A DNA stretch of 64,000 nucleotides from a virus (taxonomy: Duplodnaviria > Caudoviricetes), in IMG/VR virus record IMGVR_UViG_3300031992_000028; one strand, 5' to 3'. A model generated the notes under the pieces. That model did not search any database, was not told the DNA's origin, and saw only the letters and a list, made by a program, of their open reading frames with translations. The translations under genes were made by a program, and so were the position numbers. Shown here one piece after another: positions 36,976 to 63,924 of this stretch; positions within the stretch are counted from its first letter, which is position 1; each line of letters starts with the position of its first letter.

Positions 36976-37341
36976 ATGAAATGGGAACAATTTTTTACTA
37001 AATTTGCTGATGCTTTCAAAATTCCAGAGACATTAGATGAAGCGACTGAGTATATCAATCAAAATCCTGGTATACAGACATTTATTGAAGAAATGTCATT
37101 TAGACAGGTAGTTATTAATATTTTAGTTGCTGCAAATATTATTACAGAAAAAGATTTTAATAAATCTGTTGAGCATTTTAAAAAAGTATTTACAAAACAA
37201 TATGCTCAAGAATTACTTTCAAAAATTGAGGAATTCAAAGAAAGCTATGATTCAGACGAAGACTTATCTGATTTATTTGATGACCTTGATGAGGAAGACG
37301 ATACAGACGACCCAGATACCCCTCCTCACTATGATGCTTAA
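36976..37341 (+). CDS. Hypothetical protein with acidic tail, 121 aa (probably leaderless mRNA)
   Basis: TATAAT at 36962-36967, ATG 8 nt later, no SD. Confidence 0.7.
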   Translation: MKWEQFFTKFADAFKIPETLDEATEYINQNPGIQTFIEEMSFRQVVINILVAANIITEKDFNKSVEHFKKVFTKQYAQELLSKIEEFKESYDSDEDLSDLFDDLDEEDDTDDPDTPPHYDA

Positions 37342-37357
37342 TAATAAATAAAACTCT

Positions 37358-37384
37358 AAAGGAACTTAAATAAGTTCTTTTTTT
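37358..37384 (+). terminator. Intrinsic terminator
   Basis: aaaggaactta/taagttcttt stem plus T-tract. Confidence 0.7.
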
Positions 37385-37399
37385 ATTCTTTTTTAAATT

Positions 37400-37409
37400 T
37401 GCTAAATTA
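37400..37409 (+). promoter_or_regulatory. Putative late promoter TGCTAAATTA
   Basis: Motif copy after a terminator. Confidence 0.7.
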
Positions 37410-37443
37410 TTTGATGATTTGATTTAAAGGAGAATAAATCGAA

Positions 37444-40400
37444 ATGACAGAATTTAAATATTGTATTTACTGTGGAACTGACCCTGAGCCAGTTTGTTTT
37501 GGCGCAGAAGCAGATGCTATGAAATTTGCTCGTGAAGAAACAAACACATGCAGTTCAGTTCGTGTTGAAAAAACAGAAATAGATGAAGATGGTAGTATTC
37601 TTAATAGCGAAGTTATTTGAGAAGCTAGTAATACTAACCCAGAAAACTTTGTAGCAGAAGACAACCCTTTTAAAACAGAATTTCCTAAATCTGATATTGA
37701 AGAAGTTGAAATCTCTGATGATGCTATGTATGATGAGATTGCTAAACAATATGAAGAAGGTTCAGAATGGCCAGCTGACGCAGATGAACCTGGTAGAGCA
37801 AGACCTGATTGGAAAAAGATTAAAGAAGCTATGGAAGATAATGAATCTGAAGTAGAATGTAAATGCTGTTTTGATTTATTCCCAAAAGAAACTTGTATTA
37901 AAACTGAAGATGGTTATATTTGTAAAAAATGTAATCAAGAGCTTCATTCACATCAAGGAACTAATTTAGATTTAATTGATGCAGACCCATTTGATTTATC
38001 TTATGATGATCCAAGAGACCCTGAAGAAGAGGAAGAGCCTGAAATTAAAGATGAACCTTTAGATGCTAATGAAGTTAGAAAACATGAAGCTGGTATTGAA
38101 GAAACACTTGAAGAGCATATCAATGATAGACCAGCTGATATTGAAAGTGAACAAGAATATCAAGGCGTTGACAATGCAGTTGTTGATTGCCCAGTTGCTA
38201 CAATAATTGCTCATAGTGAAGATGAAAAACCTCTTGACTGCGAAATGAAAAAACCAGCTCTTGAAGAGCCTTTAGCTGGTAAAGATGTTGATATTAAAGT
38301 TAATGAAGATTTGTCTGAAGAAGAGACAAAAGAATTAGATAAAGAAATTGAAACTTTAGAAGAAGAATTAAAAGTTATTGTTGACTTTAGTGATTATAAA
38401 CCATGGTCTGGTGCAGTTGATACCTATGACTTAATTAGAGATGCAGATAAATTAGATGACCTTGAAGCATATCTTGAAGAATGTTACCCAGATGGAATTA
38501 CTGCTACACAAATTAATGATATTCTTTGGTTTGATGGCGACCAAGTTTTAAGTTATCTTGGACTTGGCGATGCTGAAGATGAAGATGAAATTGATGAAAG
38601 CTTAAAAGAAGAAGCTAAAGATAATAAGATTAAACTTTATGGCTGTGATTTACCAAATACTTTATTAGACGATGATGAATGAATTATCATTGATGAAAAA
38701 GATAGAGACTTAGCCATTGAATTAGATAATAAAGTTGGTGAAATATTACAAGCGCAAGTTGATGAAAAAGGTGAACTAGACCCTGATTTCTATAACGTAG
38801 AAGAATTTGAAAAACTAGCAGATGAAGCCGGGCTAGAGTGGGAATTTGGTGCCACAAATCTTCAAACAGAAAATTTAGAAGAAGCCAAAAAAGATGATGA
38901 ATTACCAGTTGATCCAGAAGCTGCTAAACTCGAAGTTCATACTATGTTAAATGATTTAGTGGCCGATGAGATTGAAGCTATTAATGGTTATGAAGAAGCA
39001 AAGAAAGAAATTCTTGATGCACCAATTAATCACAAAGATGCTATTCTTGATACTGTTGATCATATTGAAGATGAAGAAAAAGAGCATGTTGATGAATTAA
39101 TTGATGCTACTACTGAAATTCCTTTTGATAAAGAAGAAGCTCCAGCTCCAGTAGTTGAAGAGCCAGTTGTTGAAGAGCCAGTTGTTGAAGAGCCTGTGGT
39201 TGAAGAGCCGGTTGTTGAAGAGGGCTTTGAAGACCAAAGAGCAAAAACTAAAAAATTTGCCGATGAGGTTAATGCAAAGAAATCGTGGAAAGTTTCAGAA
39301 CTTAAAGAATTAGCTGCTAAATATACTGTTCCACAAGTTGACTATGATTATATTACACTACACTATAATGGTGCAATCATCAATGAAAATTTAAATGAAG
39401 ACCCATTTGATCAAAGCTTCCCAGAAGTTGAAGAAAAGCTAGAAGAAAGAGCAATGGCTGACACCCCATTTGATAGTGATGTTAAAGTTGGTGACAAAAT
39501 TAGAATTGTTCATTTAGAAGGTGAAGATAATTCTTATGACGGTAAAGAAGGCGAAGTTGAACATATCGATTCTATTGGACAACTTCACGGAACTTGAGGC
39601 GGACTTGCTATTATTCCAGGCGTTGATGATTTTGATATTATTACAGAAGGCTTGACTGAACCTAAATATGACATATTTGATGACGGTCAACAAATTGGTC
39701 AAATAGAAGCTGCAGATGAAGAAGATGCTGTTAACCAATGTTATAATGGCGCTTTTGGAAGAAGCTCATCTGATAATTTATTTACAGCAGAATTAGCTGA
39801 AGAAAGTTTAACAGAAGCTAAAGCTAAACCAGAAGCTGATAAAGTTCAATGTTATAATGATGGCTTAAAGTTAGCAAAAGCATATAATAAGCCTGTTATT
39901 TATGGTTATACAAATAGTTCCTATGATGGTAAATTCTTCAAACTAGATGACCCAATTATTTGTGACAATGTTAGTGATGAAACTAAGAAATTTAAACAAC
40001 AATATAAGAGCTGTAATGTTGCTTATGTTGCATACCCAAGTGGTCAATTAGTTGAAAGCTTACTTGAAGATACTAATTCAAATGAGCATGAAACTTTTAC
40101 TGCTGAAGAGCAAGAAGAGTATAACTGTGATGAAGATGGTAACTGCTTAGATAGCTATGATACATTACACCACTGTGGCTGGTGTGGTGATGTCTTTACT
40201 GAATATGAAATGAGACATGAAGCTGACTTTGGTTGGATTTGTTCTAGATGCGAAGACGAATTAAAATCACATGGTGGCCCATTAACATTTATTGAAAATG
40301 AAGGGCTTAGTGAATTAACTGAAGCTAAACGTAAAGCTACTCCAAAACTAGATATTGTTTCAGTTGACGAATCTGTACAAGAGTCAGATGATCATGATCC

Positions 40401-40695
40401 TAAAAGACATATTCTTCGTGCAAGATTTTATGATCCACAGGAACCTACATTAATACCAAGAGTTAGCATGGAATTTGACTTTGTAAGGGACCTCGATAGT
40501 GAAGACCCTGATGCAAGAAAAGCAAATCCACACTATAAAAAATGGTTTGAATATAATTATAGAGCATATGATTATGACGGAAACTTATTACCTGATATAA
40601 ATCCTGATAGTGAAAGAACTGAGACTGAAAAGAGAATGCTTGGTAATATTCATAAAAAATTAGTAGATGATGGAATTATTGATAATAATAATTAA
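37444..40695 (+). CDS. Acidic multi-module protein, 1083 aa (two Zn-finger modules, ferritin-like ExxH module, DUF4314-like module)
   Basis: AAGGAGA RBS; three TGA=Trp fuse the fragments; CKCC..CKKC, CGWC..CSRC, DEIEAINGYE...EEKEH, EHIDSIGQLHGTWGGLAIIPGVD. Confidence 0.75.
39148..39222 (+). repeat. 5 x 15-bp coding repeat (PVVEE)
   Basis: ccNgtNgttgaagag x5. Confidence 0.9.
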
Positions 40696-41332: not shown

Positions 41333-41397
41333 TTAGCTTCTAAATTCTGGGGCTTAATAAAATAATAAAATATTAAAATATATTGTATAATATTATG

Positions 41398-41507
41398 TGA
41401 GTTGAAGAGCTCACAAGTTCATAGTAGCGCTAAGGTAAAACTTAGCAATCCTCCCTTCAACAGCAGCTTATCACAATTCCTCCTGGTATGTTGCTGTTTT
41501 TCTTTTT
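41398..41507 (+). ncRNA. Candidate small RNA with anti-SD (CCUCC) motifs
   Basis: TATAAT 41386-41391; stems tgtgag/ctcaca, gctaag/cttagc and terminator aacagcagc/gttgctgtt plus T-tract; no ORF. Confidence 0.55.
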
Positions 41508-41520
41508 GCTAAATTTAATG

Positions 41521-41572
41521 GTCGGTCAAATAGCGCCATCACCTTCGCCACAGCTAAGTTGACCGGCTTTTT
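41521..41572 (+). ncRNA. Candidate short hairpin RNA / terminator behind a late-promoter variant
   Basis: TGCTAAATTT at 41507; stem gtcggtcaa/ttgaccggc plus T-tract; loop CCATCACCTT. Confidence 0.4.
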
Positions 41573-41608
41573 TATTTTAACTGAGAAGCTACTGAGAAGT
41601 GTTTCATT

Positions 41609-41618
41609 TGCTAAATTA
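41609..41618 (+). promoter_or_regulatory. Putative late promoter TGCTAAATTA
   Basis: Motif copy heading the 41635-44345 operon. Confidence 0.7.
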
Positions 41619-41634
41619 TTTGAGGTTTGCAAAA

Positions 41635-42057
41635 ATGCAGTGAAATAATGTTGATATAACTACCAAAGTAGCTATTACACGCTTTCTAAAAGTTAAAAAT
41701 AATTTACCAATTAAATTTATTTCAAGTAATTTTGCTGCAAGTGGCGAAAAACTTTATTACGCTTACTTTGAAGATACTAAATTATCTACATGATATAAAA
41801 GCATTAATTCGACACGAGAAGGTGTTTTTAGAGTAATTATTAACGAAGAATTTTTAAACTCTCAAACAAACGGCATTGATTTAGTTGCTAAGATACCAAG
41901 CAATATATCAGATGAAAAAAGAATCATTTTAAGAATCGCTTACTCTATTTTGGTAAATTGACAAAGAGCTGTTATTGAAGCTTATAAAACGGCAGAAAAA
42001 GATAGTAATAAAATTACTTATGCTAATGCTATGAATTGATATGAAGATTTAAAATAA
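41635..42057 (+). CDS. LRIAY-family paralogue 1, 140 aa
   Basis: GAGG RBS; 4 TGA; KRIILRIAYSIL. Confidence 0.7.
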
Positions 42058-42058
42058 T

Positions 42059-42400
42059 ATGGCAAGATATAGTTTACAAGATGCACGTAGATATATAGTT
42101 CAAGCATTCATGAGACTTAATAAAGCTCGTGGTTTAAATTTAGCTTTACTTGATTTAGAGTATGCAGATTTAATGGGCTGAGATTTTATTAAAGCTCATA
42201 TGTATGATAAAACAACTCACACTAAGTTTGATAGTATGCTTAATGAGTTTATTTTTACCAGAGAAGATACTATGACAAATTTAGACACACAAGCTAAAAT
42301 ACTTGGAAAAAATCTAAATGAAAGAGAAAAAATTATTTTAAGAGTTGCTTATACTATTTGAAGAGACTGGAAGGAAACTAGAAATGTTGACGTGGACTAA
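42059..42400 (+). CDS. LRIAY-family paralogue 2, 113 aa
   Basis: QAFMRLNKARGLNL...KIILRVAYTIW; 2 TGA. Confidence 0.75.
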
Positions 42401-42713
42401 TCAAGACTTAGATGATTTCTGTGAACAAGCAGTCGAGCTTTTAAATAAGAAAAAGCAATTACAATTAGAATTAAGAAATTGTTGGCTTTATTCAAATAGC
42501 TCTGGCAGTAATTTTCATATTATCTATCATAATAACTTTTTAGATAAAGATTTTCATTTATGTAGAAATGGTAGGATTTTGCAAGAAGGAACTATTGGTG
42601 TTGATAAAGTGGCCGAGCTAGAAAAAGTAGACGACATTAAATTAAAAATAGTTTTACGCATTGCATATTTTATTTATAAAGACTGTCAAAGAGAGATGAA
42701 GGAAGATAAATAA
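42384..42713 (+). CDS. LRIAY-family paralogue 3, 109 aa
   Basis: QAVELLNKKKQLQL...KIVLRIAYFIY. Confidence 0.75.
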   Translation: MLTWTNQDLDDFCEQAVELLNKKKQLQLELRNCWLYSNSSGSNFHIIYHNNFLDKDFHLCRNGRILQEGTIGVDKVAELEKVDDIKLKIVLRIAYFIYKDCQREMKEDK

Positions 42714-43240
42714 TGGCTAGAGAAGTCTCATTTATGTTTAAAGACCTTGAAGAGCTTGCTCAAATTAAAGCAGGTGTTTTAGGTTATCTTCAAAGAGATA
42801 TTAACAAGCTATTAAAAACAAAAGACTTAGATGCTGAATTTATAAATATTGCAACACCTGGAAAAGCTTATGGAAGGACTTGACTACTCTTTAAAGTTTA
42901 TTACACTTGCTATGATGACCAAGATGATATGTTAGGAAATTATACGCATGTTTTCTTTGCTTACCCTATTCAACAAAACTTATTTACAAGAGACCCAGAC
43001 ATGATGGACATTGTAGATGGACAAGCTAGAATTAAAGGAAGACAAGATAGATTAAGTGATATTGATTTAGTTAAGGTTAGAATTCTTTATCATATATTTT
43101 ATATTATTAAGTGTATTCAAGAAGATAATTTACCTGCAACCATTAAACTTCCTACTAAAAAATACATTGTAGTTGAATATGCCGATGCTGGAAACTTATT
43201 CTACGAGTTAAAAGATCATTTACCTGGGGGCTTTAATTAA
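42713..43240 (+). CDS. Divergent LRIAY-family paralogue 4, 175 aa
   Basis: TAATG coupling; 1 TGA; INKLLKTKDLD...VKVRILYHIFY. Confidence 0.6.
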
Positions 43241-43241
43241 T

Positions 43242-43991
43242 ATGGGATTACAACTTGGAATGAATGAATCATCAAACATTATTAGTCTAGCCATTAAAGC
43301 TACTGGAGAAAACTTGGATAGAGATTTTTATCATATTCATTCTGCACCAGGACATCAGGGCTTCTTTGTTGAAATTGCTGACCAGACACTTGAAGGCAAG
43401 CTCTCTGCAGTATCTAACGACTATGATAATGGTGATTTTGTTTTTACTTTAAATATACCATATGAGTATTTTAATGATGATCAATTGCCTGAAGATACTA
43501 AGCTTGGAATAAAACTTACAGACCACACTGAGGTAAAAGCTGAAATTAGATGTATGGGATTAATTGCTAAGACACACGAAGCATGACTTAAAGACCATGA
43601 AGTTTTTACCACAGAAGATTTAAGAAAAGTTATTAATGATGCTCTAGATAGATTAAGAAAAATTAAAAAATTAGATTTAATGGTCCATGGAAATAAAGGC
43701 GAAAAAGCTGAAAAATATGTTTCATTGTGGCTTACTGAAGGACATATTCCTGCGACTGGTGGAAGTTTTCTTGATAGATTTTTCCCAGTTGAGCTACATG
43801 TCTATGACTATTATATTGATGTGGGAAATCATGTAGTCGATGAATTAATTGGTGAAACTAACCTCCGTGGTAAAAGCAGACGAGAAGTTTGTCTATTAAG
43901 AGTAGCATATACTATTTATTCTGAATGTACTGGTTGGCTTCATAATAAATGACCAAAAGTTTTTAATGATTATGTAAACGGAGAGTTTTAG
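43242..43991 (+). CDS. LRIAY-family paralogue 5 (probably two tandem domains), 249 aa
   Basis: 2 TGA fuse ORFs 43242 and 43680; DALDRLRKIKKLDL...CLLRVAYTIY. Confidence 0.7.
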
Positions 43992-44006
43992 TTAGGAGTT
44001 ATATGT

Positions 44007-44345
44007 ATGGATCAAGCACAAAAAGATTTACTAATTAAAGATGCTGAGAAATATAAAGCAGATGACTATTTAGCTAAAGCTGTTCAGCTTCTATTTAAGA
44101 ATAAAAAAATAAAAATAGAAATAGTTGCTCATGAATGAGATATTAGTAATGTCAGTGATAAGCTAATTTTTAAGCTATGATATTCTGCAGATGGTCATGA
44201 AGTAGTATTAAATATATTAGAAAGTGTTTTTAAAGATTATAATAGAGATGCAGATAAAGATATTGGAATTAAAAATGATTTGCCAATAAGCACTAAAATT
44301 ATTTTGAGACTTGCATATCTATTATACAAACATAGAAATGATTAA
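44007..44345 (+). CDS. LRIAY-family paralogue 6, 112 aa
   Basis: AGGAG RBS; 2 TGA; KAVQLLFKNKKIKI...KIILRLAYLLY. Confidence 0.75.
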
Positions 44346-44346
44346 C

Positions 44347-44409
44347 TGCTAAATTAAGTAACATAAATCATTTGCATGGTTTGAAAGGTGTCGAAAGGCA
44401 TCTTTTTTT
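44347..44409 (+). promoter_or_regulatory. Late promoter motif followed within about 30 nt by a terminator
   Basis: TGCTAAATTA 44347-44356; aaggtgtc-gaaa-ggcatctt plus T-tract. Confidence 0.55.
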
Positions 44410-44438
44410 ATCTCCGGCTATTGTATAATATAATAAGT

Positions 44439-44969
44439 ATGTCCACAGAAGAATTAATTGAAAAGGCAGTAGAAAATTTAAATAGGGTTAAGCAATTAAA
44501 CCTAAAGATAACAGGCATATTATTACAGCTTGGCAATGATAATAATTTTTCTGTATCAATATTAGATAATGAAAGTGACTGCACATTTGACACTATTATT
44601 GATGAACAGGTTACTACTAAACAGCTGTTACCAGATGACCCTGTAAGTCTATCACCAGATACTATTATAATGCTGAGAATAGCTAAGCGTATATTTGAAG
44701 CTTATAAAAAATTTAAATCTAAACTTGTTGATGATAGCTTAACACTTAATGCTAACCAAACAATTAGTTCAATACAATGGGGTAATACTACTTATGATAT
44801 TGGAGTTAATGGTAGAAGCTTAACTGCAACATTTGATGAAGTAGATGAGCTAAAAAATAAGCTTAATAATTTACAAACTGAAAAAGATCACTTGGAACAA
44901 GAATTACAAAGCACAAAAGCAATAGTTGATTTACTCCTTCAACGATGCCAAGATAAAGGAATTCTATAA
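44439..44969 (+). CDS. LRIAY-family paralogue 7 with C-terminal coiled coil, 176 aa
   Basis: KAVENLNRVKQLNL...IMLRIAKRIF; TATAAT 44424-44429, no SD. Confidence 0.7.
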   Translation: MSTEELIEKAVENLNRVKQLNLKITGILLQLGNDNNFSVSILDNESDCTFDTIIDEQVTTKQLLPDDPVSLSPDTIIMLRIAKRIFEAYKKFKSKLVDDSLTLNANQTISSIQWGNTTYDIGVNGRSLTATFDEVDELKNKLNNLQTEKDHLEQELQSTKAIVDLLLQRCQDKGIL

Positions 44970-44992
44970 ATTAGAAATTTGTAAAAAAACTA

Positions 44993-45021
44993 TTTACAAG
45001 TTTCTTTTTTTATAGTATAAT
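44993..45021 (+). promoter_or_regulatory. Sigma70/SigA-type early promoter overlapping a terminator hairpin
   Basis: TTTACA-17-TATAAT. Confidence 0.75.
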
Positions 45022-45034
45022 ATAAATAGAGGTA

Positions 45035-45436
45035 ATGAATATGTTTAGAAAAGCTACTAAGACAGAATTTAGAAATAAACAAGGCAAGTTAGCCAAAGAT
45101 ATTATTGACTGGCTTTTAAAGAAAGAAATCTTTGATGATACTTTTATTTATGTAAATGGCAAACGTTATGGAACCTATGATGGTGAAGGCCATTATAATT
45201 ATGGAACTAACTCTTGGGACAAAGTTTATGTAGAAGATAATAAAGACCCTAAAGACTACTTTGAATATGCAGGAAAGATTTTATCTATGTCTTTTGAGGG
45301 ACCACTTTATGATTTATTAAACTATGGCTTTGAGTGGAATAGCCATGCTGAAGATGAACTTAGAAATATCTTTCATAAATATGGCTATTACTTTGAACTT
45401 GGAAATGCTTGGAACTTAACAGCAGTGGAGGAATAA
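45035..45436 (+). CDS. Hypothetical protein, 133 aa
   Basis: Intact ORF with AGAGGT RBS. Confidence 0.75.
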   Translation: MNMFRKATKTEFRNKQGKLAKDIIDWLLKKEIFDDTFIYVNGKRYGTYDGEGHYNYGTNSWDKVYVEDNKDPKDYFEYAGKILSMSFEGPLYDLLNYGFEWNSHAEDELRNIFHKYGYYFELGNAWNLTAVEE

Positions 45437-45438
45437 TT

Positions 45439-45927
45439 ATGTTTCCAGATTTATTAGAAGCTCTTGGGGCTTATACTGATTACTATATGGACGACACAGA
45501 CCCAGAGGTTAAAGACGCATTTAAAAAAATACTTAAAGATATGTGGCATGAGAAAGCTATAAAGTATGTAGATGATACCGGTGAGATTACTGGTGAAGCT
45601 CGTGCTATTTTAGAAAAGGCTTTACAATTACTTCATAAAAATAAAAACATTCATCTCAGATTTGATTTGAATTCTGAAAATTGCAGCATGCGTCATATGC
45701 AAGACCCAAGAAGTTTAAGTTCACAAATAACTTTACAATTTGAAGTAAAAGAAGGCTTAGCTAAACAATCTATTAAAGCTACCTTTAATAAAGAAGTTTT
45801 TACTGCTAATTGGTTACCAACTGATGATTATGCTAGTATCTCAAATAAAATTAAAGCCTTAGATACTACAACCTATCGTGGTATTAGACTTGCTTATATT
45901 ATCTATCAAGCAATTAAAAATAATTAA
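45439..45927 (+). CDS. LRIAY-family paralogue 8, 162 aa
   Basis: GGAGG RBS; KALQLLHKNKNIHL...GIRLAYIIY. Confidence 0.75.
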   Translation: MFPDLLEALGAYTDYYMDDTDPEVKDAFKKILKDMWHEKAIKYVDDTGEITGEARAILEKALQLLHKNKNIHLRFDLNSENCSMRHMQDPRSLSSQITLQFEVKEGLAKQSIKATFNKEVFTANWLPTDDYASISNKIKALDTTTYRGIRLAYIIYQAIKNN

Positions 45928-45935
45928 TTTTATTA

Positions 45936-45964
45936 TTTACATACACATTTATTTGTGATATAAT
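45936..45964 (+). promoter_or_regulatory. Sigma70-type early promoter
   Basis: TTTACA-17-TATAAT with extended TG. Confidence 0.75.
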
Positions 45965-45991
45965 ATTAATAGAAAGTTGAGGTTAACAACT

Positions 45992-54462: not shown

Positions 54463-54533
54463 TAATAAATTATTAAATCATTAAATTATTAAATTAATAA
54501 ATCATTAAATTATTAAATTAATAAATTATTAAA
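54463..54533. repeat. AT-rich 8-bp-period repeat
   Basis: ttaaatta/ttaaatca/ataaatta units. Confidence 0.75.
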
Positions 54534-54588
54534 AATATTGTTTACTTGTCATGCAAATCGCGTTATAATATTATAGAGAGGTAAAGTT

Positions 54589-55167
54589 ATGGGAAGAGAT
54601 ACATTAAAAGTTATGGGTGCTTCAAACCACTGTGATGAAGAACGTTCTAAGTTAGATTACTATGGAACTGACCCTCGTTCAACTAAAGCTTTATTAGCAG
54701 TAGAACAATTCGACCACGAAATTTGGGAACCATGTGCTGGACACCACTTAATGGTTAATACACTTATCGAAGCAGGATATCATGTGTTAGCTACTGACAT
54801 CGCAGAATATGATGGTGTTCAACATGCTAAGATGAATTTCCTAGACGTTGAAGGAAGTTGGGATGGAGATATCATTACTAACCCACCATATGGACTATCA
54901 ACTGAATTTGCAGTTAAAGCATTAGAGTTGGTAAAACCTGGACATAAAGTTGCGATGTTCCTACGAACCTTATTCTTAGAAGGAACAAAGAGATATGAGA
55001 AACTCTTTAAGGAAAACCCACCAAAAACTGTTTATGTCTTCACAAATCGTCAGGTGTCTGATAAGAATGATGACTTCAACAAAGGTTCAGCAGTTAGTTA
55101 TTCCTGGTTTGTCTGGGAAAAAGGTTATACTGGACCAACACAAATAAAGTGGATAAGTTCTAAGTAA
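54589..55167 (+). CDS. Amino (N6-adenine-type) DNA methyltransferase, 192 aa
   Basis: WEPCAG (motif I) and IITNPPY (motif IV). Confidence 0.85.
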   Translation: MGRDTLKVMGASNHCDEERSKLDYYGTDPRSTKALLAVEQFDHEIWEPCAGHHLMVNTLIEAGYHVLATDIAEYDGVQHAKMNFLDVEGSWDGDIITNPPYGLSTEFAVKALELVKPGHKVAMFLRTLFLEGTKRYEKLFKENPPKTVYVFTNRQVSDKNDDFNKGSAVSYSWFVWEKGYTGPTQIKWISSK

Positions 55168-55218
55168 AATTAGAACTTTTTTATTTACTTTATCTATATT
55201 GTATGTTATAATATAGTT

Positions 55219-55392
55219 ATGAAACAGAAGATTAAGATTATTGACAAAGTTACTGGAAAGACTCTTGAAAAAGAAGTAGAAATTCGAAATCAAGATCATT
55301 TCAATGTGCAATTAAAAACTCGTGCACATATTTTTCGTAATCGTAAAAAATATAATCGTAAAATTAAACATAGACAGAAAGAAGAGGAATAA
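55219..55392 (+). CDS. Small basic protein resembling ArfA/BrfA-type ribosome rescue factors, 57 aa
   Basis: C-terminal RAHIFRNRKKYNRKIKH; ATG 6 nt after TATAAT (leaderless). Confidence 0.5.
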   Translation: MKQKIKIIDKVTGKTLEKEVEIRNQDHFNVQLKTRAHIFRNRKKYNRKIKHRQKEEE

Positions 55393-55395
55393 AAA

Positions 55396-55824
55396 ATGGA
55401 AATGGAACAAATTGATTTATCAGATCCAAAGAAATTTTTTGAAGAGCTTGTAAAGAAAGCATTAGAAGGTAAACAATCTAATTTCGAATTTATCAGAAGC
55501 TATGGTATGCTTTCTGTTGCAAGACTTTATAGAAAAGGAACCAAGAGGGTTGCAAAAGTATTTAAAAATTTATGTAAAGAAATTCTTGACAATTATTCTA
55601 AGTTAATTATTACAGATGAACAAAAAATTGATATGCTATTAGCCTATAAACAATTTGAGTCCTGTAGAGATTATTATTTAAAGGAATATGCAATCGCGAA
55701 AGATATGATTTCAGAATATCGAACATATGTATTTAGTGGTCATATACTTGAAATGCTCTCTGGTGGTTATAGGTCTGATTATGAGTGTGTAGATTATAGA
55801 AAACTACCTTGGAAACTATTTTAA
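55396..55824 (+). CDS. Hypothetical protein, 142 aa
   Basis: Intact ORF with GAGG RBS. Confidence 0.7.
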   Translation: MEMEQIDLSDPKKFFEELVKKALEGKQSNFEFIRSYGMLSVARLYRKGTKRVAKVFKNLCKEILDNYSKLIITDEQKIDMLLAYKQFESCRDYYLKEYAIAKDMISEYRTYVFSGHILEMLSGGYRSDYECVDYRKLPWKLF

Positions 55825-55836
55825 AGAGGAGGCTAT

Positions 55837-55989
55837 ATGGAAACAAAAATTTTAGAGCTTACTAAAGATGAAGCTGAGATGCTAGAATCTTATTTATTTA
55901 GAAAACAGATAAATTTAGAGAATGCAAATTTAACTGATTCGAAATGCTACCCACTAATTTGTAGTATCAGAGAAAAGTTAAAAAAGTAG
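55837..55989 (+). CDS. Hypothetical protein, 50 aa
   Basis: GAGGAGG RBS, ATG to TAG. Confidence 0.65.
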   Translation: METKILELTKDEAEMLESYLFRKQINLENANLTDSKCYPLICSIREKLKK

Positions 55990-56040
55990 TTTACATTTAC
56001 GCACTAATGTGTTATAATATTATTAGAGGAGAATAATAAT

Positions 56041-56250
56041 ATGAAAGTTCAAAGTTCAACAATTTCAGACATTGATAGAGAAGTAATTAAAGGCGAGTTA
56101 TTCTTAAAAGTTACATTTACAAATGGTAGAGAATATCTTTACGAAGGTGTGCCAGCAAATGTATATGAAGAATTCTTAACTTCAGAAAGTAAAGGCAAAT
56201 TCTTACACGAGAATATCGTTGGCCGATATAATTATTCAAGAATTAAATAA
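56041..56250 (+). CDS. KTSC-domain protein, 69 aa
   Basis: SSTI...LKVTFTNGREYLYEGVPANVYEEFLTSESKGKFLHENI. Confidence 0.9.
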   Translation: MKVQSSTISDIDREVIKGELFLKVTFTNGREYLYEGVPANVYEEFLTSESKGKFLHENIVGRYNYSRIK

Positions 56251-56337
56251 AAAAACTATTTACAAATAACCGAATTTGTGTTATAATAATAGTGTAAGGT
56301 GGAATGGCGACCACCTAAAAAAACGGAGGTAAACAAA

Positions 56338-56694
56338 ATGGCTAAAACTTACATGACTGGTTGGGGTATGCGTGGAGAGCGCACCGCAAGAGGCGGACGT
56401 GACGGAGTTCACTGTTCAGCACAATCTTATGACGGTTCAGTAATCGTCAGCAATCGCTATGTCAAAGATGACAATGGCAATGAACACTTAGAGATCAGAG
56501 TTGGAACAAACGACGGATCAAGTTGTTATTCTGATTGGAATTCACCAGATTTCATTGGAACTCTTGATGAATTCAAGGCACTCTTACAACTTCGTAAAGA
56601 CATTAAAGAAGGTAAAGTGTCTGTTGTTAGACATCGTGATCCTGATGGTTCAAAGAAACTTAAGAAACAAATGGCCTATTTAGGCATTAAATAA
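56338..56694 (+). CDS. Hypothetical early protein, 118 aa
   Basis: GGAGGT RBS and own promoter. Confidence 0.7.
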   Translation: MAKTYMTGWGMRGERTARGGRDGVHCSAQSYDGSVIVSNRYVKDDNGNEHLEIRVGTNDGSSCYSDWNSPDFIGTLDEFKALLQLRKDIKEGKVSVVRHRDPDGSKKLKKQMAYLGIK

Positions 56695-56712
56695 TGACAT
56701 CCTCTCTTTCTG

Positions 56713-56743
56713 AAAAGTTGGTCTGTAAAAAGATCAACTTTTT
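56713..56743 (+). terminator. Intrinsic terminator
   Basis: aaaagttggtct/agatcaactttt. Confidence 0.75.
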
Positions 56744-56794
56744 ATTTACTTTTTTTCAAAAACATGTTATAATAATAGTAGAGAGGTGAGAGAT

Positions 56795-57211
56795 ATGAAA
56801 GATAAAGAATTAGCAAAACAAGAATATCTTGAAATGATCAAGCAGTCCTGGACTTGGGCTAAACTTACAGAAGAGGAAAGAGAAAAGTTTTCTGAGCTAT
56901 TGGAACATCCTTGTTCAGCAGTAGTCATTAAAGGAAACTACGAACAACGTTGGGAAGCATGCGAAGCTTTATACCACACTTACTTAGAAGGGCTTGGATA
57001 TGACCCACTTGAGTGGAGAGAAGCTCAACCAACTGTTTCTACATTCTATGAGTTAAACTATAAGACTCATGGCGAACCAGTGCCACCACTTCAAATAACA
57101 AATGAAGTTCAAGCAAAGCGTTTGGCAAAAGCAGCAACCATTATGAATGGAAATACAAATGTTTCATTAACTAAAGTTGATTTAGTTACTACAAAAGTGA
57201 GGTTAGACTAA
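56795..57211 (+). CDS. Hypothetical early protein, 138 aa
   Basis: AGAGAGGTG RBS. Confidence 0.7.
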   Translation: MKDKELAKQEYLEMIKQSWTWAKLTEEEREKFSELLEHPCSAVVIKGNYEQRWEACEALYHTYLEGLGYDPLEWREAQPTVSTFYELNYKTHGEPVPPLQITNEVQAKRLAKAATIMNGNTNVSLTKVDLVTTKVRLD

Positions 57212-57213
57212 TT

Positions 57214-57744
57214 ATGTTAAAAGAATATAAAATTAAAGTAACTTCAGTAGATTACAGCATTACTTACGAAGACCTTAACTTCGACCCATTTGATTCTGTT
57301 TTCAATAGCGATGATGATATGGACGAAGCAGAGAGACAAGCTGATGAAGAAATTGCTAAGATTAAAGCAGAATTGCCACAAGAATTAGAATTGGAAATTA
57401 CTTGTGAACCAGAAGACCTTGAGGACGAAATAGCTGATGCCATTAGTGATGAGACTGGTTGGCTTAACAACTCATTTACTTATGAAATTATCAGTGAAGA
57501 AGATGCAGGAGGCCACTATAATGAAGATGGCTACTGGGTGGCTGATGATGATGACTATGAAGAAGATGAAGAAAGTGCATCAGACTTCTTTGAAAATATC
57601 GAAATTGAAGTGAAAGGTCATACAGTGTATTTGGCGCACGACGGTAGTAGTGGTTGTGAGTATGAGTTCAAGAGCAAAGATGAACTAAAACAAATCATTG
57701 CTGACTATGTTGCTGACGTAATTGACTACGATTACGAAGACTAA
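57214..57744 (+). CDS. Acidic hypothetical early protein, 176 aa
   Basis: Intact ORF; EIADAISDETGWL motif. Confidence 0.7.
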   Translation: MLKEYKIKVTSVDYSITYEDLNFDPFDSVFNSDDDMDEAERQADEEIAKIKAELPQELELEITCEPEDLEDEIADAISDETGWLNNSFTYEIISEEDAGGHYNEDGYWVADDDDYEEDEESASDFFENIEIEVKGHTVYLAHDGSSGCEYEFKSKDELKQIIADYVADVIDYDYED

Positions 57745-57829
57745 TAAAAAATTAAGTAAATTGTGTAAAAACAGTTTACTTTTTTTCATATTTGTGATAT
57801 AATAATAGTATAAGAGAGGTAATTAAAAT

Positions 57830-58345
57830 ATGGAATTAAATGGAAAAACATTAGAAGAAGTTCTAAACACTGAATTAGTTGGTAAGGATGTTGGTTATTC
57901 ACATTGGAACTTTACCGGCGCATTGATGAAAGTTATTCGTATCTTAGCAAAAGATGCTGGCTTAAATGAGTTAGACTTTAGTTATAAAACACAAGGCACT
58001 AATTCAGTGTATCTCACATACAAAGGTGTAAGTTTTGGCGATGCTACATTTCAAAAGCAAAAAGGTAAATATCATTATGGAAGTTATGAATGGACTTTCA
58101 AAAAAATATTTGTTAACTTATGGAATGAAGACGGTTATTCAAGTTACAAAGGTTTAACTTTCTTAGAAATGATTGCTAAGATCAATGAGGAGTTAGATGT
58201 TAAGAAAACTAGAGAGCAAGCCAAACTTGAACAAGCAAAACAAATTTTTCAACTGATTAAAGAAAAAATTGGTGCTAAAGACGATTACGAAGTTAGTTAT
58301 TTCATTGAGTATATGAATAAAAACAGATATTCACTTCGTCAATAA
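57830..58345 (+). CDS. Hypothetical early protein, 171 aa
   Basis: AGAGAGGT RBS and own promoter. Confidence 0.75.
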   Translation: MELNGKTLEEVLNTELVGKDVGYSHWNFTGALMKVIRILAKDAGLNELDFSYKTQGTNSVYLTYKGVSFGDATFQKQKGKYHYGSYEWTFKKIFVNLWNEDGYSSYKGLTFLEMIAKINEELDVKKTREQAKLEQAKQIFQLIKEKIGAKDDYEVSYFIEYMNKNRYSLRQ

Positions 58346-58437
58346 TTCTTATAAAAATTTAAGTAAATTCTTCAAAAAAGGGTTTACTTTTTTATTAAAA
58401 TATGTTATAATTATAATAGAGAGAGGTTAAGAGAACT

Positions 58438-58767
58438 ATGAAAAAATACTTAATTCATTTTATGAGTGTTGATACCCCAAGCGTTGAAGACGATGGTATT
58501 GATGCAGGAACTGGTTTTGGAATTTTAGACAAAACCTTTGACACAAAAGAAGATGCTGAAAAGTATCTTGAAGAAACTTTGATTCCAGAAGACCAAGCCA
58601 ATTTGGAAGATTGCTACGGAATTACTGATGATCCTGAACTTGCTGACAGTTATGAGTTTTCTGTTGAAGACGGTAGTTATGATAGAAAGCAATTAGTTGT
58701 TTACGATAAGTTTGACGGAAATGAACTTAATACAACTATCTACGAAGTTGTGGAGGTTGAATTTTAA
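58438..58767 (+). CDS. Acidic hypothetical early protein, 109 aa
   Basis: AGAGAGGT RBS and own promoter. Confidence 0.75.
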   Translation: MKKYLIHFMSVDTPSVEDDGIDAGTGFGILDKTFDTKEDAEKYLEETLIPEDQANLEDCYGITDDPELADSYEFSVEDGSYDRKQLVVYDKFDGNELNTTIYEVVEVEF

Positions 58768-58940
58768 TGAGAACAGTTTATATTGTCGTTAAAGACGGAA
58801 TTATTCAAGATGCTTATGCAGACCATCTCACTGATTTAGTGGTATTAGATTATGATACCCAAGATGAAGAAATGATTAAGCAACTTGATAAAGAACTTGC
58901 TAAGATTAAAGAAAGCAATGATTGTATTGAAATTCTATAA
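58767..58940 (+). CDS. Hypothetical protein, 57 aa
   Basis: GGAGGT RBS, TAATG coupling. Confidence 0.65.
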   Translation: MRTVYIVVKDGIIQDAYADHLTDLVVLDYDTQDEEMIKQLDKELAKIKESNDCIEIL

Positions 58941-58953
58941 AGAGGAAATACAT

Positions 58954-59205
58954 ATGGAATTCGGAAAATTAGAACAAGAAGAATTTGAAAAAAGATGTGA
59001 AGAAGTATTTGACACTCAAGAAGATGAAGAATACTATGGAATTCGCATTGAAGACGACGGTCAAGTTTACATTGAGATGGGCGAGACTGGAAGCAAGGCA
59101 GAAGGTTTTAAGTGGGTTTACTTTGATTACAAACCTGATATGACAGAAAGACCAGAAGCATTAGATTACTTAATGGGAAAGAGAGACGATTTCAATGATT
59201 GATAA
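58954..59205 (+). CDS. Hypothetical protein, 82-83 aa
   Basis: AGAGG RBS; ends TGA TAA. Confidence 0.65.
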
Positions 59206-59461
59206 TGTTGTTTATGTTATTGTAGATTGTTGCAGTGGTGAAGATTACAGCACTGACGATCCAACAGTATTATTTGTTACTAATGATTTAGAAACTGGAA
59301 TTCAATTCTTTGAAAATGAAATTGAAAACTGGGAAGATGGAATGACTGATTTCGACAGCCACAGAGAAATTCATGAAGATGGAAAGATCATTTATGAATG
59401 CACTGACTTTGAAGGTGATTCACATAGAATCTTAAAGTTAGTTAAAACAATAGTTGAATAA
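59195..59461 (+). CDS. Acidic hypothetical protein, 88 aa
   Basis: Intact ORF overlapping the previous stop. Confidence 0.65.
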   Translation: MIDNVVYVIVDCCSGEDYSTDDPTVLFVTNDLETGIQFFENEIENWEDGMTDFDSHREIHEDGKIIYECTDFEGDSHRILKLVKTIVE

Positions 59462-59531
59462 AAATTAAAAAAGCCGTTTACAAATGCGGCTTTTTATGTT
59501 ATAATATTAATAGAGAGTTGAGGTAATTACT

Positions 59532-59981
59532 ATGAATAAAAAGAATATTGTTACAAAAGAAAACATTGCTAAAGTTGCTGGTTGGTTAAAGACAGCTTGT
59601 GATGACTTTGCAAATAATGATGCAAGCGGTTGCTATAATTTCCCACTATCTGATGACTTAGTATTGGCAGTTGGCTGGTCTGATGGTTATGACATGGCTG
59701 ATACTGATATTATCAAATCTAAAGAAGGTCAAAGACAACATGGTTCTTGGGTTTGTGGTTGGGCAGTAAATGCGGCAGTTAAAGTTAGAAATGACTTCGA
59801 TTGTGCTGACTTCGATATGTTAAACTATCCTTGCTATAATGATGGTGAATGCTGGGACAGTGGAATTTCCATGAAACCAAATCAAACTCGTAGAGAGTAT
59901 CGTAGAGACGCTCGTTGGTTCTTAGAAACATTTGTGTCTATGACAAATGCTCACAAGAGAGGTGAAATTAGTTATGAGTAA
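59532..59981 (+). CDS. Hypothetical early protein, 149 aa
   Basis: GAGGT RBS and own promoter. Confidence 0.75.
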   Translation: MNKKNIVTKENIAKVAGWLKTACDDFANNDASGCYNFPLSDDLVLAVGWSDGYDMADTDIIKSKEGQRQHGSWVCGWAVNAAVKVRNDFDCADFDMLNYPCYNDGECWDSGISMKPNQTRREYRRDARWFLETFVSMTNAHKRGEISYE

Positions 59982-60144
59982 AGAAGAGACATATACAATT
60001 ATTGTTCATTTTTCTGGACATGAAGATCAAGTTCGACATGGTGTTGATAAATTAAATGCTAGTATAATTCCCGCTGAATTCGAAATAGCATTCCCAAAAG
60101 AATTCAAGAGTGGAAAGATGAGTATTGAAGTAATTAAAGAATAA
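59974..60144 (+). CDS. Hypothetical protein, 56 aa
   Basis: GAGGTG RBS. Confidence 0.6.
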   Translation: MSKEETYTIIVHFSGHEDQVRHGVDKLNASIIPAEFEIAFPKEFKSGKMSIEVIKE

Positions 60145-60204
60145 ATTAAATAACCCGTTTACAGAAGCGGGTTTTTGTGTTATAATAATAATGAGGAAAA
60201 TAAT

Positions 60205-60741
60205 ATGATTAAATTAAAACAAGTTAGTCCTGAAAATGTTTGGTATGAATTCGAAGACGAAGTTGACTTTGATCAATACAAAGATAAAATGGTTATCACT
60301 GGGAATAGAGACTTCAAGTCTATCGGTGATGATACTTTAATCAGTGTTGTTAAAGGCGATTACTATGATGAAGATCAAACTTTAGTCGAGAATCCTGATG
60401 GTAGTTGCTACGAAGATACTATCGGATATGACTACGAAACAGCAGAAGAATTAGCAAAGCTTTCTGGTAAGAAAAACTGGGTGGAAGGCGACTTCCGCGG
60501 ATACTCACAAGGCGATTGGCAAACTATCTGGTTCGTTAAAGATGAAGTTACTCAAGATGAAATTAAATACATGGAAAACTTCTACATGGGCAAGATGAGT
60601 GAATTTCATGATGAAGATATGTGTTGCTACTATGTGCCCGATGATGTAGTATGGAAAGGCAAGAAAGAAATTTGTGACTACCTTGGGCTCAACCCCGATG
60701 ACACAGAGATTTATGATGAAAATGAAAATTTAGTTGAATAA
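60205..60741 (+). CDS. Acidic hypothetical early protein, 178 aa
   Basis: GAGG RBS; RGYSQGDW motif. Confidence 0.75.
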   Translation: MIKLKQVSPENVWYEFEDEVDFDQYKDKMVITGNRDFKSIGDDTLISVVKGDYYDEDQTLVENPDGSCYEDTIGYDYETAEELAKLSGKKNWVEGDFRGYSQGDWQTIWFVKDEVTQDEIKYMENFYMGKMSEFHDEDMCCYYVPDDVVWKGKKEICDYLGLNPDDTEIYDENENLVE

Positions 60742-60797
60742 ACTATTTACATTTTCTATTTTTCGTGTTATAATATATTTGAAGAGAGGTAAGAAGT

Positions 60798-61202
60798 ATG
60801 GGCTTTAATAAAATTAGAACCATTAGAGTTAGCGAAAGAGTATTTGATATTGTCTGTGAGGCTTTAGATAATGAGGCAACAGAAAATTATGTTAAAATTT
60901 CCGGATACTTAGAATGCTTTAACAATTGCAGAGAACAAGGTTATGTCCTTCATGTTGATTCAGTTGATTGGGACAATCCTAATAAAACTAAAAAAGATTT
61001 ATGTGTTTGGGCTTTTGAAGCAAGAAGTTCAGATGAGATCGTCGTAAGTTGGCAAACTGAATATCCACACAACGGAATGTTCAGCGAAGAAACTTATAAA
61101 GAACGCAGAAAATATTTCCATTATGATGAACTTCAAAAAGCAGCAGACTTTATTATCGATTTAGTTAAAGAACATTTTGCCAATGAATTCAGAGGTGAAT
61201 AA
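60798..61202 (+). CDS. Hypothetical early protein, 134 aa
   Basis: AGAGAGGT RBS; NCREQGY motif. Confidence 0.75.
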   Translation: MGFNKIRTIRVSERVFDIVCEALDNEATENYVKISGYLECFNNCREQGYVLHVDSVDWDNPNKTKKDLCVWAFEARSSDEIVVSWQTEYPHNGMFSEETYKERRKYFHYDELQKAADFIIDLVKEHFANEFRGE

Positions 61203-61203
61203 T

Positions 61204-61539
61204 ATGAAAGACGAATTTGACGAATTATTAGAAGAATTAAATTTAGAAAACTTTGGTGAAGACTTCGATGTTAAGCCAGCTATATATCAAGTGTGGATGT
61301 TAGGCTACAATGAAGATGAAGCTATTACTGATTATGAAGTAATGGTTAATGAATCTAAAGACGCCGAATATGCAGTGGAATATGCTAAGAAATTCGTAGA
61401 AGAAAAACGTTATGAGTCTTCAGCGCCATTCCCAGAAGATGTTGCTTACATCGAAATATTAGTCGAGACTGTTGTGGATTTTGAAGATCACACAGAAAAT
61501 GTCGGAACTTTATTTACAACAACTGTAAAAGTGAAATAA
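61204..61539 (+). CDS. Acidic hypothetical protein, 111 aa
   Basis: GAGGTG RBS. Confidence 0.7.
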   Translation: MKDEFDELLEELNLENFGEDFDVKPAIYQVWMLGYNEDEAITDYEVMVNESKDAEYAVEYAKKFVEEKRYESSAPFPEDVAYIEILVETVVDFEDHTENVGTLFTTTVKVK

Positions 61540-61597
61540 ACTATTTACAAATTAATTTTTACATGTTATAATATAAATGACAATGGAGGACTGATTT

Positions 61598-61882
61598 ATG
61601 GTAAAGTCAAAACATTTAGGAAAGAAATTTGGTCGCTGGACTGTTACAAGAATTAGCAGAGAACGTGATGGACACTATCGTTTCTATTTAACTAGAAAGA
61701 CAAGCGATGGCGCAATTAAGACTGTTGGTTTAACAAATGTTACAATGGCAAGATTAGCTCGTGGTGAAACTAGCATCACAACTTTGTTAAAGAACAAACA
61801 ATTCCAAAGAAACAAATTCCCAAGCAGATCTTATAGAAACTCTGTTTGGTATACTTACAACACAAACGGTAGCTTAGAATAA
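61598..61882 (+). CDS. Basic hypothetical protein, 94 aa
   Basis: GGAGG RBS; LGKKFGRWTV N-terminus. Confidence 0.7.
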   Translation: MVKSKHLGKKFGRWTVTRISRERDGHYRFYLTRKTSDGAIKTVGLTNVTMARLARGETSITTLLKNKQFQRNKFPSRSYRNSVWYTYNTNGSLE

Positions 61883-61910
61883 CTATCGGTATCGAAAGGA
61901 GGAAGTTGCT

Positions 61911-62828
61911 GTGGCAAGTCAAACATTTAACAACTTCAAGAATTACGCAAATCAATTAGAGAAAGAACTTGGTATTAAATATGATGCTAAGCCTTATAAA
62001 GATACTATCAGGGTTATGCTTGATGGTTTTTGCAAAGCAATGGATGAAGGCGATGAACATCTTAAGAACTTATATATCAGTGGTTTAATCTTACGTCATT
62101 GGGATAAAGTAAAGAAACTTGCAGATAGTTGCCCTGGCATCGATCTTAAAGGCGAAGAGTTCGTCGACTGGGTTTACGAAGCAATTATGCTTGCTTGTGA
62201 ATATCGTAAATGGCAAAAAGACGAAAGTGTCAATGCTCAACAATGTATCAATCAATGTATTGAAACTATCAGGGTTAGACACTACTATGAATATAACTTA
62301 GACAAACACAAAGCGAACTACAATACTGTCTCTTTAGAAACCCCTGTTGGCGATGGAGACGATAATGGTGTTCAAAAAACTTTGATGGATACTATGCATG
62401 ATGAGAATGCGGAAGAAGCTGCTAGAGTAGCAGAAAGTAATAACGCTGCTCGACACATCGTTCAGATGTTTATCAACAAAAACAGAATTGTCGAAGCAAT
62501 TATCATGGACATCATTGCTTTTGGTGATACTGAAAAAATTACTAAACACATTAAACGTGGCATTGACGAAAATGGTGAGGCTTACAAGTATATAACTTAC
62601 ACACGTGAGTTCTGGAAGTTCAAAGCAGTCCAACTTCTTTCAAACTTGCCAGAAGACTACCAACAATACTTCCTTGAAAACTATTTAGTTAATACAGCAG
62701 CATTAGATGCAGCTTTAAACGTGCTTAGAAAGGCCAATAACAACAAATTATACCGTGAGTTAGATAAAAGCCTATCTGCAGCAAAAGTAATCCTACAAGC
62801 GTCTATGTGAGCTGAAAATAATAATTAA
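61911..62828 (+). CDS. Sigma-factor-like transcription regulator, 299 aa (305 aa if TGA 62808 is Trp)
   Basis: GAAAGGAGG RBS with GTG; region-2-like LILRHW...EEFVDWVYEAIMLA and region-3.2-like VSLETPVGDGDD..TLMD. Confidence 0.55.
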
Positions 62829-62889
62829 AATAAAACAACCTTCCAAATTGGGAGGTTTTCATGTTGTATAATAAAGTGAGGATTTGATT

Positions 62890-63618
62890 ATGTGGTTAGA
62901 TATAATGAGCCAGTATAATACACTTCAAGTAAATATCAAATTGGCAAATTTACTTGGGTTAGAAGTTGCTACTTATTGGGCGGCATTGATGGATGTGTAT
63001 GCGAGAGTAGTGAATAAATATAAAGATGAGTTAGAAGCGAATTCAGGATATTTTGAACTCGACAGAGACTATATTACTAAGAGAACGACATTACAGTTAG
63101 ACAAACAGTTAGAGATCGATGCAGGACTCGGTAAACTTGGTGTGCTACAACATCGTAGCGAAAACGAACTGAATTGGATCACACTAGATGTAGAAAAGCT
63201 TTGTGCGATCTTAGTAGATGACAGTATCGATGCAATCAGAGATGTTCAACGCGTTTCTAAACTTAGACGAGAAGATACCGCTCGTGCCAAGAAAGCATCG
63301 GTTAGAATTAACTTAGTCGCAGCACTAAAAGAAACTGATCCAGATGTGCTTACTGCTTACAATAACTGGATCGATGCACTGTTAGAAGCTAAGAAGCCGA
63401 TTACTAGACAAGCTTTGGATATATACCAGAATAACTTAAACAATTATACTGATAATAAACAAGCGAAAATTAAAATTCTTGAGATTGCGACAACAAATGC
63501 TTACACTGAATTTGCATGGTCTATGAAGATTTACGAAAAAGATTATCGTGGCAATGGAACATTTATTGGTGTAAAGCAAAATAGAACTAGCGGAATTGAT
63601 CCGAATTCAGGTTTTTAG
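62890..63618 (+). CDS. Replication initiator / replisome organiser-like protein, 242 aa
   Basis: N-terminal wHTH-like VNIKLANLLGLEVATY...GYFEL...TTL...LGKLGVL; C-terminal KKPITRQA. Confidence 0.55.
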   Translation: MWLDIMSQYNTLQVNIKLANLLGLEVATYWAALMDVYARVVNKYKDELEANSGYFELDRDYITKRTTLQLDKQLEIDAGLGKLGVLQHRSENELNWITLDVEKLCAILVDDSIDAIRDVQRVSKLRREDTARAKKASVRINLVAALKETDPDVLTAYNNWIDALLEAKKPITRQALDIYQNNLNNYTDNKQAKIKILEIATTNAYTEFAWSMKIYEKDYRGNGTFIGVKQNRTSGIDPNSGF

Positions 63619-63630
63619 GAGAAATTTAGT

Positions 63631-63924
63631 ATGAATGAATTTATAGCAAGACGATCATTAGAAGAAGATGCACTTCTAGAATATATTTCGAAAGCAAGAG
63701 TGCTAGATGATCTGTATCATCGAACAGGTGAGTTAGAAGAAACTATTGAAGCGATGGATAAAAACATCGACGATGTTGAGGAAACTGGTTTAGATGAAAT
63801 TGTAGAAGCGATGTGCAAAGCTCGCAATGCACTAAATTTAGAAAGACTTGACCTCGAAATTCAAATTCACAAGTTAGAACTTTGGTTGGCAGAATTTGAA
63901 AGGATAAGACAAATAACCCGATAA
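63631..63924 (+). CDS. Coiled-coil hypothetical protein, 97 aa
   Basis: AGGAG RBS. Confidence 0.7.
   Translation: MNEFIARRSLEEDALLEYISKARVLDDLYHRTGELEETIEAMDKNIDDVEETGLDEIVEAMCKARNALNLERLDLEIQIHKLELWLAEFERIRQITR

Follow-up and report, generated by a model that had tools for sequence, protein, structure and literature searches.

Results

A T4-like rumen phage that reads TGA as tryptophan

The window analysed here is a 64,000-nt stretch of phage DNA in which all called genes lie on the plus strand. It holds a tail and baseplate module whose sheath (5158), tube (6843) and baseplate hub (7736) genes match T4-like PHROGs, a family of paralogous genes (LRIAY), a SNF2 helicase gene and a long region of early genes. 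Coding density is 90% under code 4, in which TGA is a sense codon, versus 58% under code 11, and when in-frame TGAs were aligned with standard-code relatives, 63 of 147 pairs placed Trp opposite the TGA and 1 placed Gly. Codes 15 and 25 were rejected for the window. The best-matching public runs are sheep gut samples, and the relatives form a family of rumen phages whose complete members measure 220-237 kb. A close cultured phage was not found, the best sheath matches being 22-27%. The window is part of a T4-like rumen myophage, probably of about 220-237 kb, in which TGA is read as Trp.

Three promoter classes (early, middle and late) were distinguished. The late motif, that of the TGCTAAATTA promoters, is a 10-mer with nine copies in the window, all intergenic and all on the plus strand, against 0.98 expected. 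The initial annotation, which had two classes, treated the TATAAT promoters as a single sigma70 class; their genes are indeed free of internal TGA, but the promoters split into an early type (TTTACW, 17 nt, then TATAAT; 15 intergenic copies) and a middle type consisting of a -10 box only. The main features outside the clusters of LRIAY genes are as follows.

501-36914 (+): T4-like tail and baseplate module, from PHROG matches and codon counts; TGA used as Trp except in tube, hub and a few other genes
5086, 7537, 15883, 28301 and 36437 (+): late motifs of the tail module
36959-37341 (+): middle-type promoter (-10 box only) and gene 36976; TGG only; looks leaderless
37400-40695 (+): late motif (37400-37409) and gene for an acidic protein of 1083 aa; 3 TGA, 9 TGG
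44993-47914 (+): two early units (promoters 44993 and 45936) with LRIAY gene 45439, RNA ligase 45992 and nucleoside deoxyribosyltransferase 46997; 15 TGG and one near-terminal TGA at 47903
52348-52653 (+): conserved gene encoding a double zinc-ribbon protein; its codon 9 (52372) is an internal TGA, the one exception to the rule
52890-54395 (+): SNF2 helicase gene; 5 TGG, no TGA
54541-62828 (+): early region without internal TGA; its 11 promoters are of host type (TTTACW, 17 nt, TGnTATAAT) and lie at 54541, 55184, 55990, 56259, 56745, 57775, 58383, 59477, 60158, 60746 and 61544
61911-62810 (+): early gene for a putative sigma70-family factor of 299 aa, probably the middle sigma; TGG only; ends at TGA 62808
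62864-63924 (+): middle-type promoter and genes 62890 and 63631; TGG only

Genes 36976, 49403 and 49891 lack a ribosome-binding site and start 7-8 nt downstream of TATAAT; their mRNAs are probably leaderless. Between 50956 and 52347 there is a gene-free stretch of 1.4 kb with flat GC skew and divergent promoters, a possible origin or genome end. A gene-free unit of about 290 nt (51322-51616, minus strand) runs from a middle-type promoter at 51631 to a terminator and contains a copy of the 16S anti-Shine-Dalgarno tail; its folding z is -2.0, homologs occur in L356, L358 and L359, and there is no Rfam match. In RNA runs X3 and X4, which come from one sample and are represented by contigs only, depth in the 51322-51616 bin is 230 and 139, versus mostly 1-13 elsewhere. 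A second candidate small RNA (41397-41580, plus strand; folding z -4.6; homolog in G001) lies behind a middle promoter and displays CCUCC-type motifs in loops.

TGA usage follows promoter class

Internal TGA and TGG codons were counted in curated genes of each class, giving TGA/TGG of 0/58 for early (28 genes), 0/10 for middle (5 genes) and 95/67 for late (31 genes). The early-late difference is highly significant (Fisher p = 3e-18; per gene 1/28 versus 22/28, p = 7e-9). The initial annotation had reported 46 TGG in genes 54589-63924, where TGA occurs only at 59200 and 62808, and 15 TGG without TGA in genes 45035-47642; both counts are exact, and its statement that TGA is common behind the late motif also holds, with 19/18 in the late genes of the part that it covered. 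Its rule that TGA tracks promoter class stands for early versus late genes, but it had skipped gene 52348, in which an internal TGA occurs in the absence of a late motif; together with gene 52890 the TGA/TGG is 1/5. Apparent TGAs at 44382 and 61592 were not counted, being upstream of likely starts, nor was ORF 47902 (2 TGA), which has no ribosome-binding site.

Because Lys, Glu and Gln codons are A-ending at similar rates in both classes (0.76 early versus 0.84 late), the TGG-only state is specific to Trp. The TGA share of late genes is 0.59 in the window and 0.20-0.77 in relatives, not above the neutral A-ending share of 0.84, and some late genes avoid TGA altogether: the tube and hub genes do so, and the capsid family has a TGA/TGG of 0/12.

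A paralogous family as an internal control

The LRIAY family has 13 members in the window, supported by leave-one-out HMM E values of 1e-15 to 1e-3 for 12 and 0.055 for gene 49403. Those outside the early units listed above are arranged as follows.

41609-44345 (+): late motif and operon of six LRIAY genes (41635, 42059, 42384, 42713, 43242, 44007); truncating TGAs in five
44347-44969 (+): late motif ending in a terminator-like hairpin; downstream, TGG-only LRIAY gene 44439 behind middle promoter 44421
48042-49292 (+): late motif and LRIAY genes 48070, 48523 and 48912; 5 TGA, 3 TGG
49387-50955 (+): two TGG-only LRIAY genes, 49403 behind a middle-type promoter and 49891 behind early promoter 49854

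The late motif at 44347 lies upstream of gene 44439 and is cut off from it by the terminator-like hairpin; the segment 44347-44410 is a late motif without a gene of its own, with the hairpin within about 40 nt. The contrast that had been drawn within this family, with TGA in 8 of the 9 late members and none of the 4 TATAAT-driven ones, is real (p = 0.007; by codon, TGA/TGG of 16/8 versus 0/8, p = 0.002) but small. The nine late members make up just two operons, and only seven are truly truncated, because the sole TGA of gene 48070 lies 9 codons before the gene end. In the relative L006, TGA occurs in one of three late LRIAY genes, and two TATAAT members have a TGA/TGG of 0/8. The control fits the rule and carries little weight. 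The family has 168 relatives among cluster representatives, is absent from the distant complete genomes and found no match in the ESM Atlas.

TGA at early gene ends and the exceptional gene 52348

The TGAs of the TATAAT-driven units had been placed at extreme C-termini, which is where they lie. That at 47903 sits three codons before a TAA, at a position that no relative covered. Gene 58954 ends in TGA-TAA (59200-59205, plus strand), and four relatives (L007-L010) have TAA in place of the TGA. At codon 300 of gene 61911 the window (62808) shares TGA with G335, L442 and L445; L443 and L444 have TAA there, and the family of this protein is mostly 299 residues long, ending at this position. Because TGA and TAA interchange among relatives at 59200 and 62808, TGA acts as a stop at these early ends, and the TAA there would serve as a backup stop after the code has switched.

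Gene 52348 has no late motif within 4.3 kb upstream; TATAAT boxes occur at 51938, 52013 and 52244, and its promoter is uncertain. Its TGA is kept in 6 of 7 sequences of its clade, three other recoded lineages carry TGA at three other positions, and most standard-code relatives lack Trp in this protein. The pattern suggests a gated middle gene, one picked after the fact and whose TGA is missing from some relatives, with TGG in L005 and no Trp codon in G014.

The pattern recurs in relatives and is not explained by expression level

The same comparison was made in six recoded relatives, with promoter classes assigned automatically and hence noisy; TGA/TGG counts (early, middle, late) were as follows.

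G016: 1/40, 58/267, 308/93
G005: 0/55, 26/271, 346/103
G014: 1/202, 5/23, 55/62
G336: 1/115, 37/133, 374/232
G338: 0/173, 31/154, 64/259
G335: 2/81, 23/210, 73/168

The TGA share in these relatives is 0-2% in early and 9-22% in middle genes, and in the window and all six relatives recoding is found in structural genes and is absent, or nearly so, from early genes. The closest relative, G335, is 85% identical to the last 3.3 kb of the window and continues for 146 kb.

Expression level alone had been named as a possible cause of the TGG bias. A C-ending codon index was used as expression proxy (0.30 early versus 0.19 late), and the promoter-class effect remained significant after it was taken into account in seven of seven genomes (window p = 7e-7), which argues against that explanation. 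Expression-matched late genes have TGA/TGG of 67/27 in G016, 29/16 in G005 and 16/21 in G014; the late genes of the window with an early-like index (0/3) are too few to test alone. All three promoter types also occur in standard-code relatives, where TGA ends many genes. The transcription cascade is thus older than the recoding. In a hub-tube tree, recoded and standard-code members are interleaved, with nine code changes; this number is too high because of short loci whose genes are all TGA-avoiding.

Suppressor tRNAs and associated genes

A search for tRNA-Trp(UCA), TrpRS and RF1 had been proposed, and its outcome differed between the window and its relatives. No tRNA or Rfam family was found in the window, whereas tRNA(UCA) is present in five relatives (G335, G016, G005, G336 and G338), TrpRS in three (G016, G005 and G336) and RF1 in G336. 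Low-threshold ARAGORN hits were noise. Neither tRNA(UCA) nor TrpRS was found in the standard-code G012, G007 and G004, and RF1 was not found in G016, G005, G014, G335, G338 or G334. The full module occurs in G336, where tRNA(UCA), split by a 290-nt intron, is followed by TrpRS, RF1 and a late-motif cassette of TGA-rich and membrane-protein genes that looks lysis-like. In G016 and G005, tRNA(UCA) lies behind a middle-type box and is followed by Lon and TrpRS, without RF1. G335 and G338 have the tRNA only: that of G335 is split by a 217-nt intron, such that ARAGORN finds only the joined exons, and no TrpRS or RF1 was found in its 146 kb; that of G338 (positions 2900-2995, L425; 96 nt) has a long variable arm, and the amino acid with which it is charged is uncertain. 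The introns of G336 and G335 have a G as their last base and by eye resemble group I introns, with no Rfam match. Experiments have shown that phage TrpRS:tRNA(UCA) pairs of this kind place Trp at UGA while competing with RF2 (PMC12636597).

Other translation-related elements were seen in the family. An early gene of the window (55219-55392) encodes a 57-aa ArfA/BrfA-like peptide (DUF7230 E 4e-4, below the cut-off; relatives show a KKGKGS motif), which is probably not specific to recoding because a weaker homolog occurs in the standard-code G012. G335 carries 39 tRNAs at 44089-62212 (L419, L420), including A34 anticodons for Ser, Leu, Ala, Thr and Pro, and 2.3 kb without genes or Rfam match at 55912-58204. 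There are tmRNA genes in G014, G336 and G338, a ROOL RNA in G338 and a c-di-GMP-I riboswitch match in G336.

Two candidate phage sigma factors

The top structure matches of protein 61911 are sigma domain 2 (SigB Z 8.1, rmsd 2.7, 90 residues aligned); its Foldseek rows are mostly sigma factors, with E above 0.04, and no Pfam or PHROG match was found. Gene 61911 is a candidate sigma gene, probably for the middle sigma. Its assignment as the late sigma was set aside, since a second, gp55-like sigma exists in the relatives. This protein of 274 aa follows the SbcC/D genes (gp46/47 type) in a middle operon outside the window, and its model matches sigma domain 2, with a top row of T4 gp55 (structure 7d7d; Z 8.4, rmsd 3.0, 98 aligned) tied with other sigma factors. 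From this fold and gene position, the 274-aa protein is a candidate gp55-like late sigma. All nine loci scored as recoded have 2-5 TGAs in its gene, against none in the remaining 19. Its TGA/TGG is 32/9 in the nine recoded loci versus roughly 52/232 in neighbouring genes, and 4/0 in G335 versus 1/28 for the rest of the block. Because this sigma carries 2-5 TGAs, late transcription probably waits for the suppressor.

Discussion

We propose, with a probability of roughly 0.78 for the model as a whole, that a lytic T4-like jumbo phage of a standard-code Bacillota host changes its genetic code in mid-infection. Host sigmaA would read the early promoters at a time when TGA is still a stop, such that early genes must avoid internal TGA. 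The early sigma 61911 would then turn on the -10-only middle promoters, leading to replication genes and tRNA-Trp(UCA), the latter charged by phage TrpRS where present and otherwise by host TrpRS. Judging from the relatives, the TGA-containing gp55-like sigma would be made only once the suppressor works, and the late promoters would come on. Late genes may then take up TGA by AT-biased drift, and very abundant late proteins may avoid it owing to competition between the tRNA and RF2.

The initial annotation had the late genes locked until the phage supplies a UGA suppressor or neutralizes RF2. What stands is that the standard code suffices to read the early genes, that TGA is Trp in late genes and that relatives encode a suppressor; neutralization of RF2 and an adaptive lock on the late genes are hypothetical. 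A lock as an adaptation of late genes at large finds no support in their TGA share, in the avoidance of TGA in capsid, tube and hub genes or in the middle genes, which already use some TGA. Because late TGA is not above the AT-driven level and the capsid family has none, the greater part of the pattern can be had from drift plus selection that removes TGA wherever it cannot be read or carries a cost. An adaptive lock is plausible at a few regulators only. We tentatively entertain the reading, with odds somewhat short of even, that the code switch is a selected checkpoint, in which the early sigma leads to the suppressor tRNA and TGAs kept by selection in a few regulators hold back late transcription. 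These regulators would be the gp55-like sigma and perhaps the zinc-ribbon gene 52348, waiting for Trp-tRNA(UCA) to be spliced, charged and able to out-compete RF2.

The same host and suppressor could also operate without any regulatory gate. TGA would be a neutral codon of slight cost, entering by drift any gene expressed once the tRNA is present; the TGA load of the late sigma would then merely reflect when this sigma is made. We regard this as a serious possibility that falls a little below an even chance. A late TGA share that never exceeds the A-ending share of other codons, the avoidance of TGA in capsid, tube and hub genes, the single TGA-containing gene among three late LRIAY genes of L006 and the existence of standard-code relatives that run the same cascade without a TGA gate are all in keeping with it. 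It accounts less well for a late sigma whose TGA usage is far above that of its own operon and is found in every locus scored as recoded, or for a zinc-ribbon gene that has gained TGA at four different positions. Moreover, even if neutral in origin, the TGAs of the sigma would make late transcription dependent on the suppressor.

A very different explanation is that code 4 is native to the host, a Mycoplasmatales-like bacterium without RF2, and that the TGG bias reflects expression level. The AT-rich genome, the higher C-ending index of early genes and the preference of abundant late genes for TGG fit this explanation. It is nevertheless very unlikely, as promoter class still matters in each of the seven genomes once the expression proxy is allowed for, TGA is nearly absent from early genes (0-2%) and interchanges with TAA at their ends, a single tree intersperses recoded with standard-code phages, and the nearest named bacterial TrpRS matches (Anaeroplasma, 62%; Bacilli bacterium, 59%) are in loci read in code 11. 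These TrpRS matches fit, indirectly, a host among standard-code Bacilli, which we regard as probable. In PMC13092985, the Bacillota lineage given for reassignment of UGA to Trp is Mycoplasmatales. A CRISPR spacer search of 307 Bacilli genomes returned only AT-rich look-alikes, at about two scored candidates per genome, and was uninformative; Lachnospiraceae, Bacteroidales and Bacillales assemblies with binned phage contigs were set aside as hosts, being mutually inconsistent, and all four have prfB. A recent move from a standard-code to a code-4 host, or infection of both, with early genes keeping the old usage for breadth, would agree with the several changes of code label on the tree but is less probable still, given that a code-4 host would make phage tRNA(UCA), TrpRS and RF1 needless, that late genes would fail in a standard-code host without them and that the same early-late split recurs in distant lineages.

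TGA recoding of phages has already been published, and what is added here is the promoter-level pattern and the mechanistic detail. Borges et al. (2021; 10.1101/2021.08.26.457843) proposed that early genes use the host code whereas late genes need the switch, and described the tRNA-TrpRS-RF1-lysis module, in two Jade genomes only; their text makes no mention of promoters or sigma factors, and a targeted literature search found nothing newer. Like our phages, the Jade clade reads TGA as Trp, has genomes above 200 kb and has recoded structural modules spread over the genome, and in G336 a TGA-rich, lysis-like cassette likewise follows immediately on suppressor tRNA, TrpRS and RF1. In contrast, the Jade analysis works by gene class, whereas here the split is seen promoter by promoter, and in G335, the closest relative of the window, the tRNA(UCA) is split by an intron and neither TrpRS nor RF1 was found. 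The complete relatives measure 220-237 kb; for Jade genomes about 200-210 kb is given, in a list of four sizes for five clades. The Agate clade of the same study also intermixes TGA-recoded and standard-code members and keeps replication genes in the standard code, but the recoded lineage analysed in that work is about 127 kb and no TrpRS is reported for the clade. The phage TrpRS:tRNA(UCA) pairs characterized elsewhere (PMC12636597) are of the same gene types as those of G016, G005 and G336, but were tested in E. coli and cell-free systems rather than in infection.

With regard to transcription, the T4 gp55 and SPO1 gp28/gp33-34 cascades proceed from host sigma to phage sigmas and use a single-box late promoter, in the standard code. 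The cascade proposed here is alike in this succession, in its single-box late promoter and in a gp55-like gene adjoining the gp46/47 nuclease genes; the difference is that its last step would also need stop-codon read-through.

The pattern published by gene class can now be followed by promoter. Intron-split suppressor tRNAs get missed, which may account for some of the TGA-recoded genomes (65%) in which none has been reported, and the family offers further natural TrpRS:tRNA(UCA) pairs. The late sigma is the gene in which TGA versus TGG could separate a timing device from tolerated drift.
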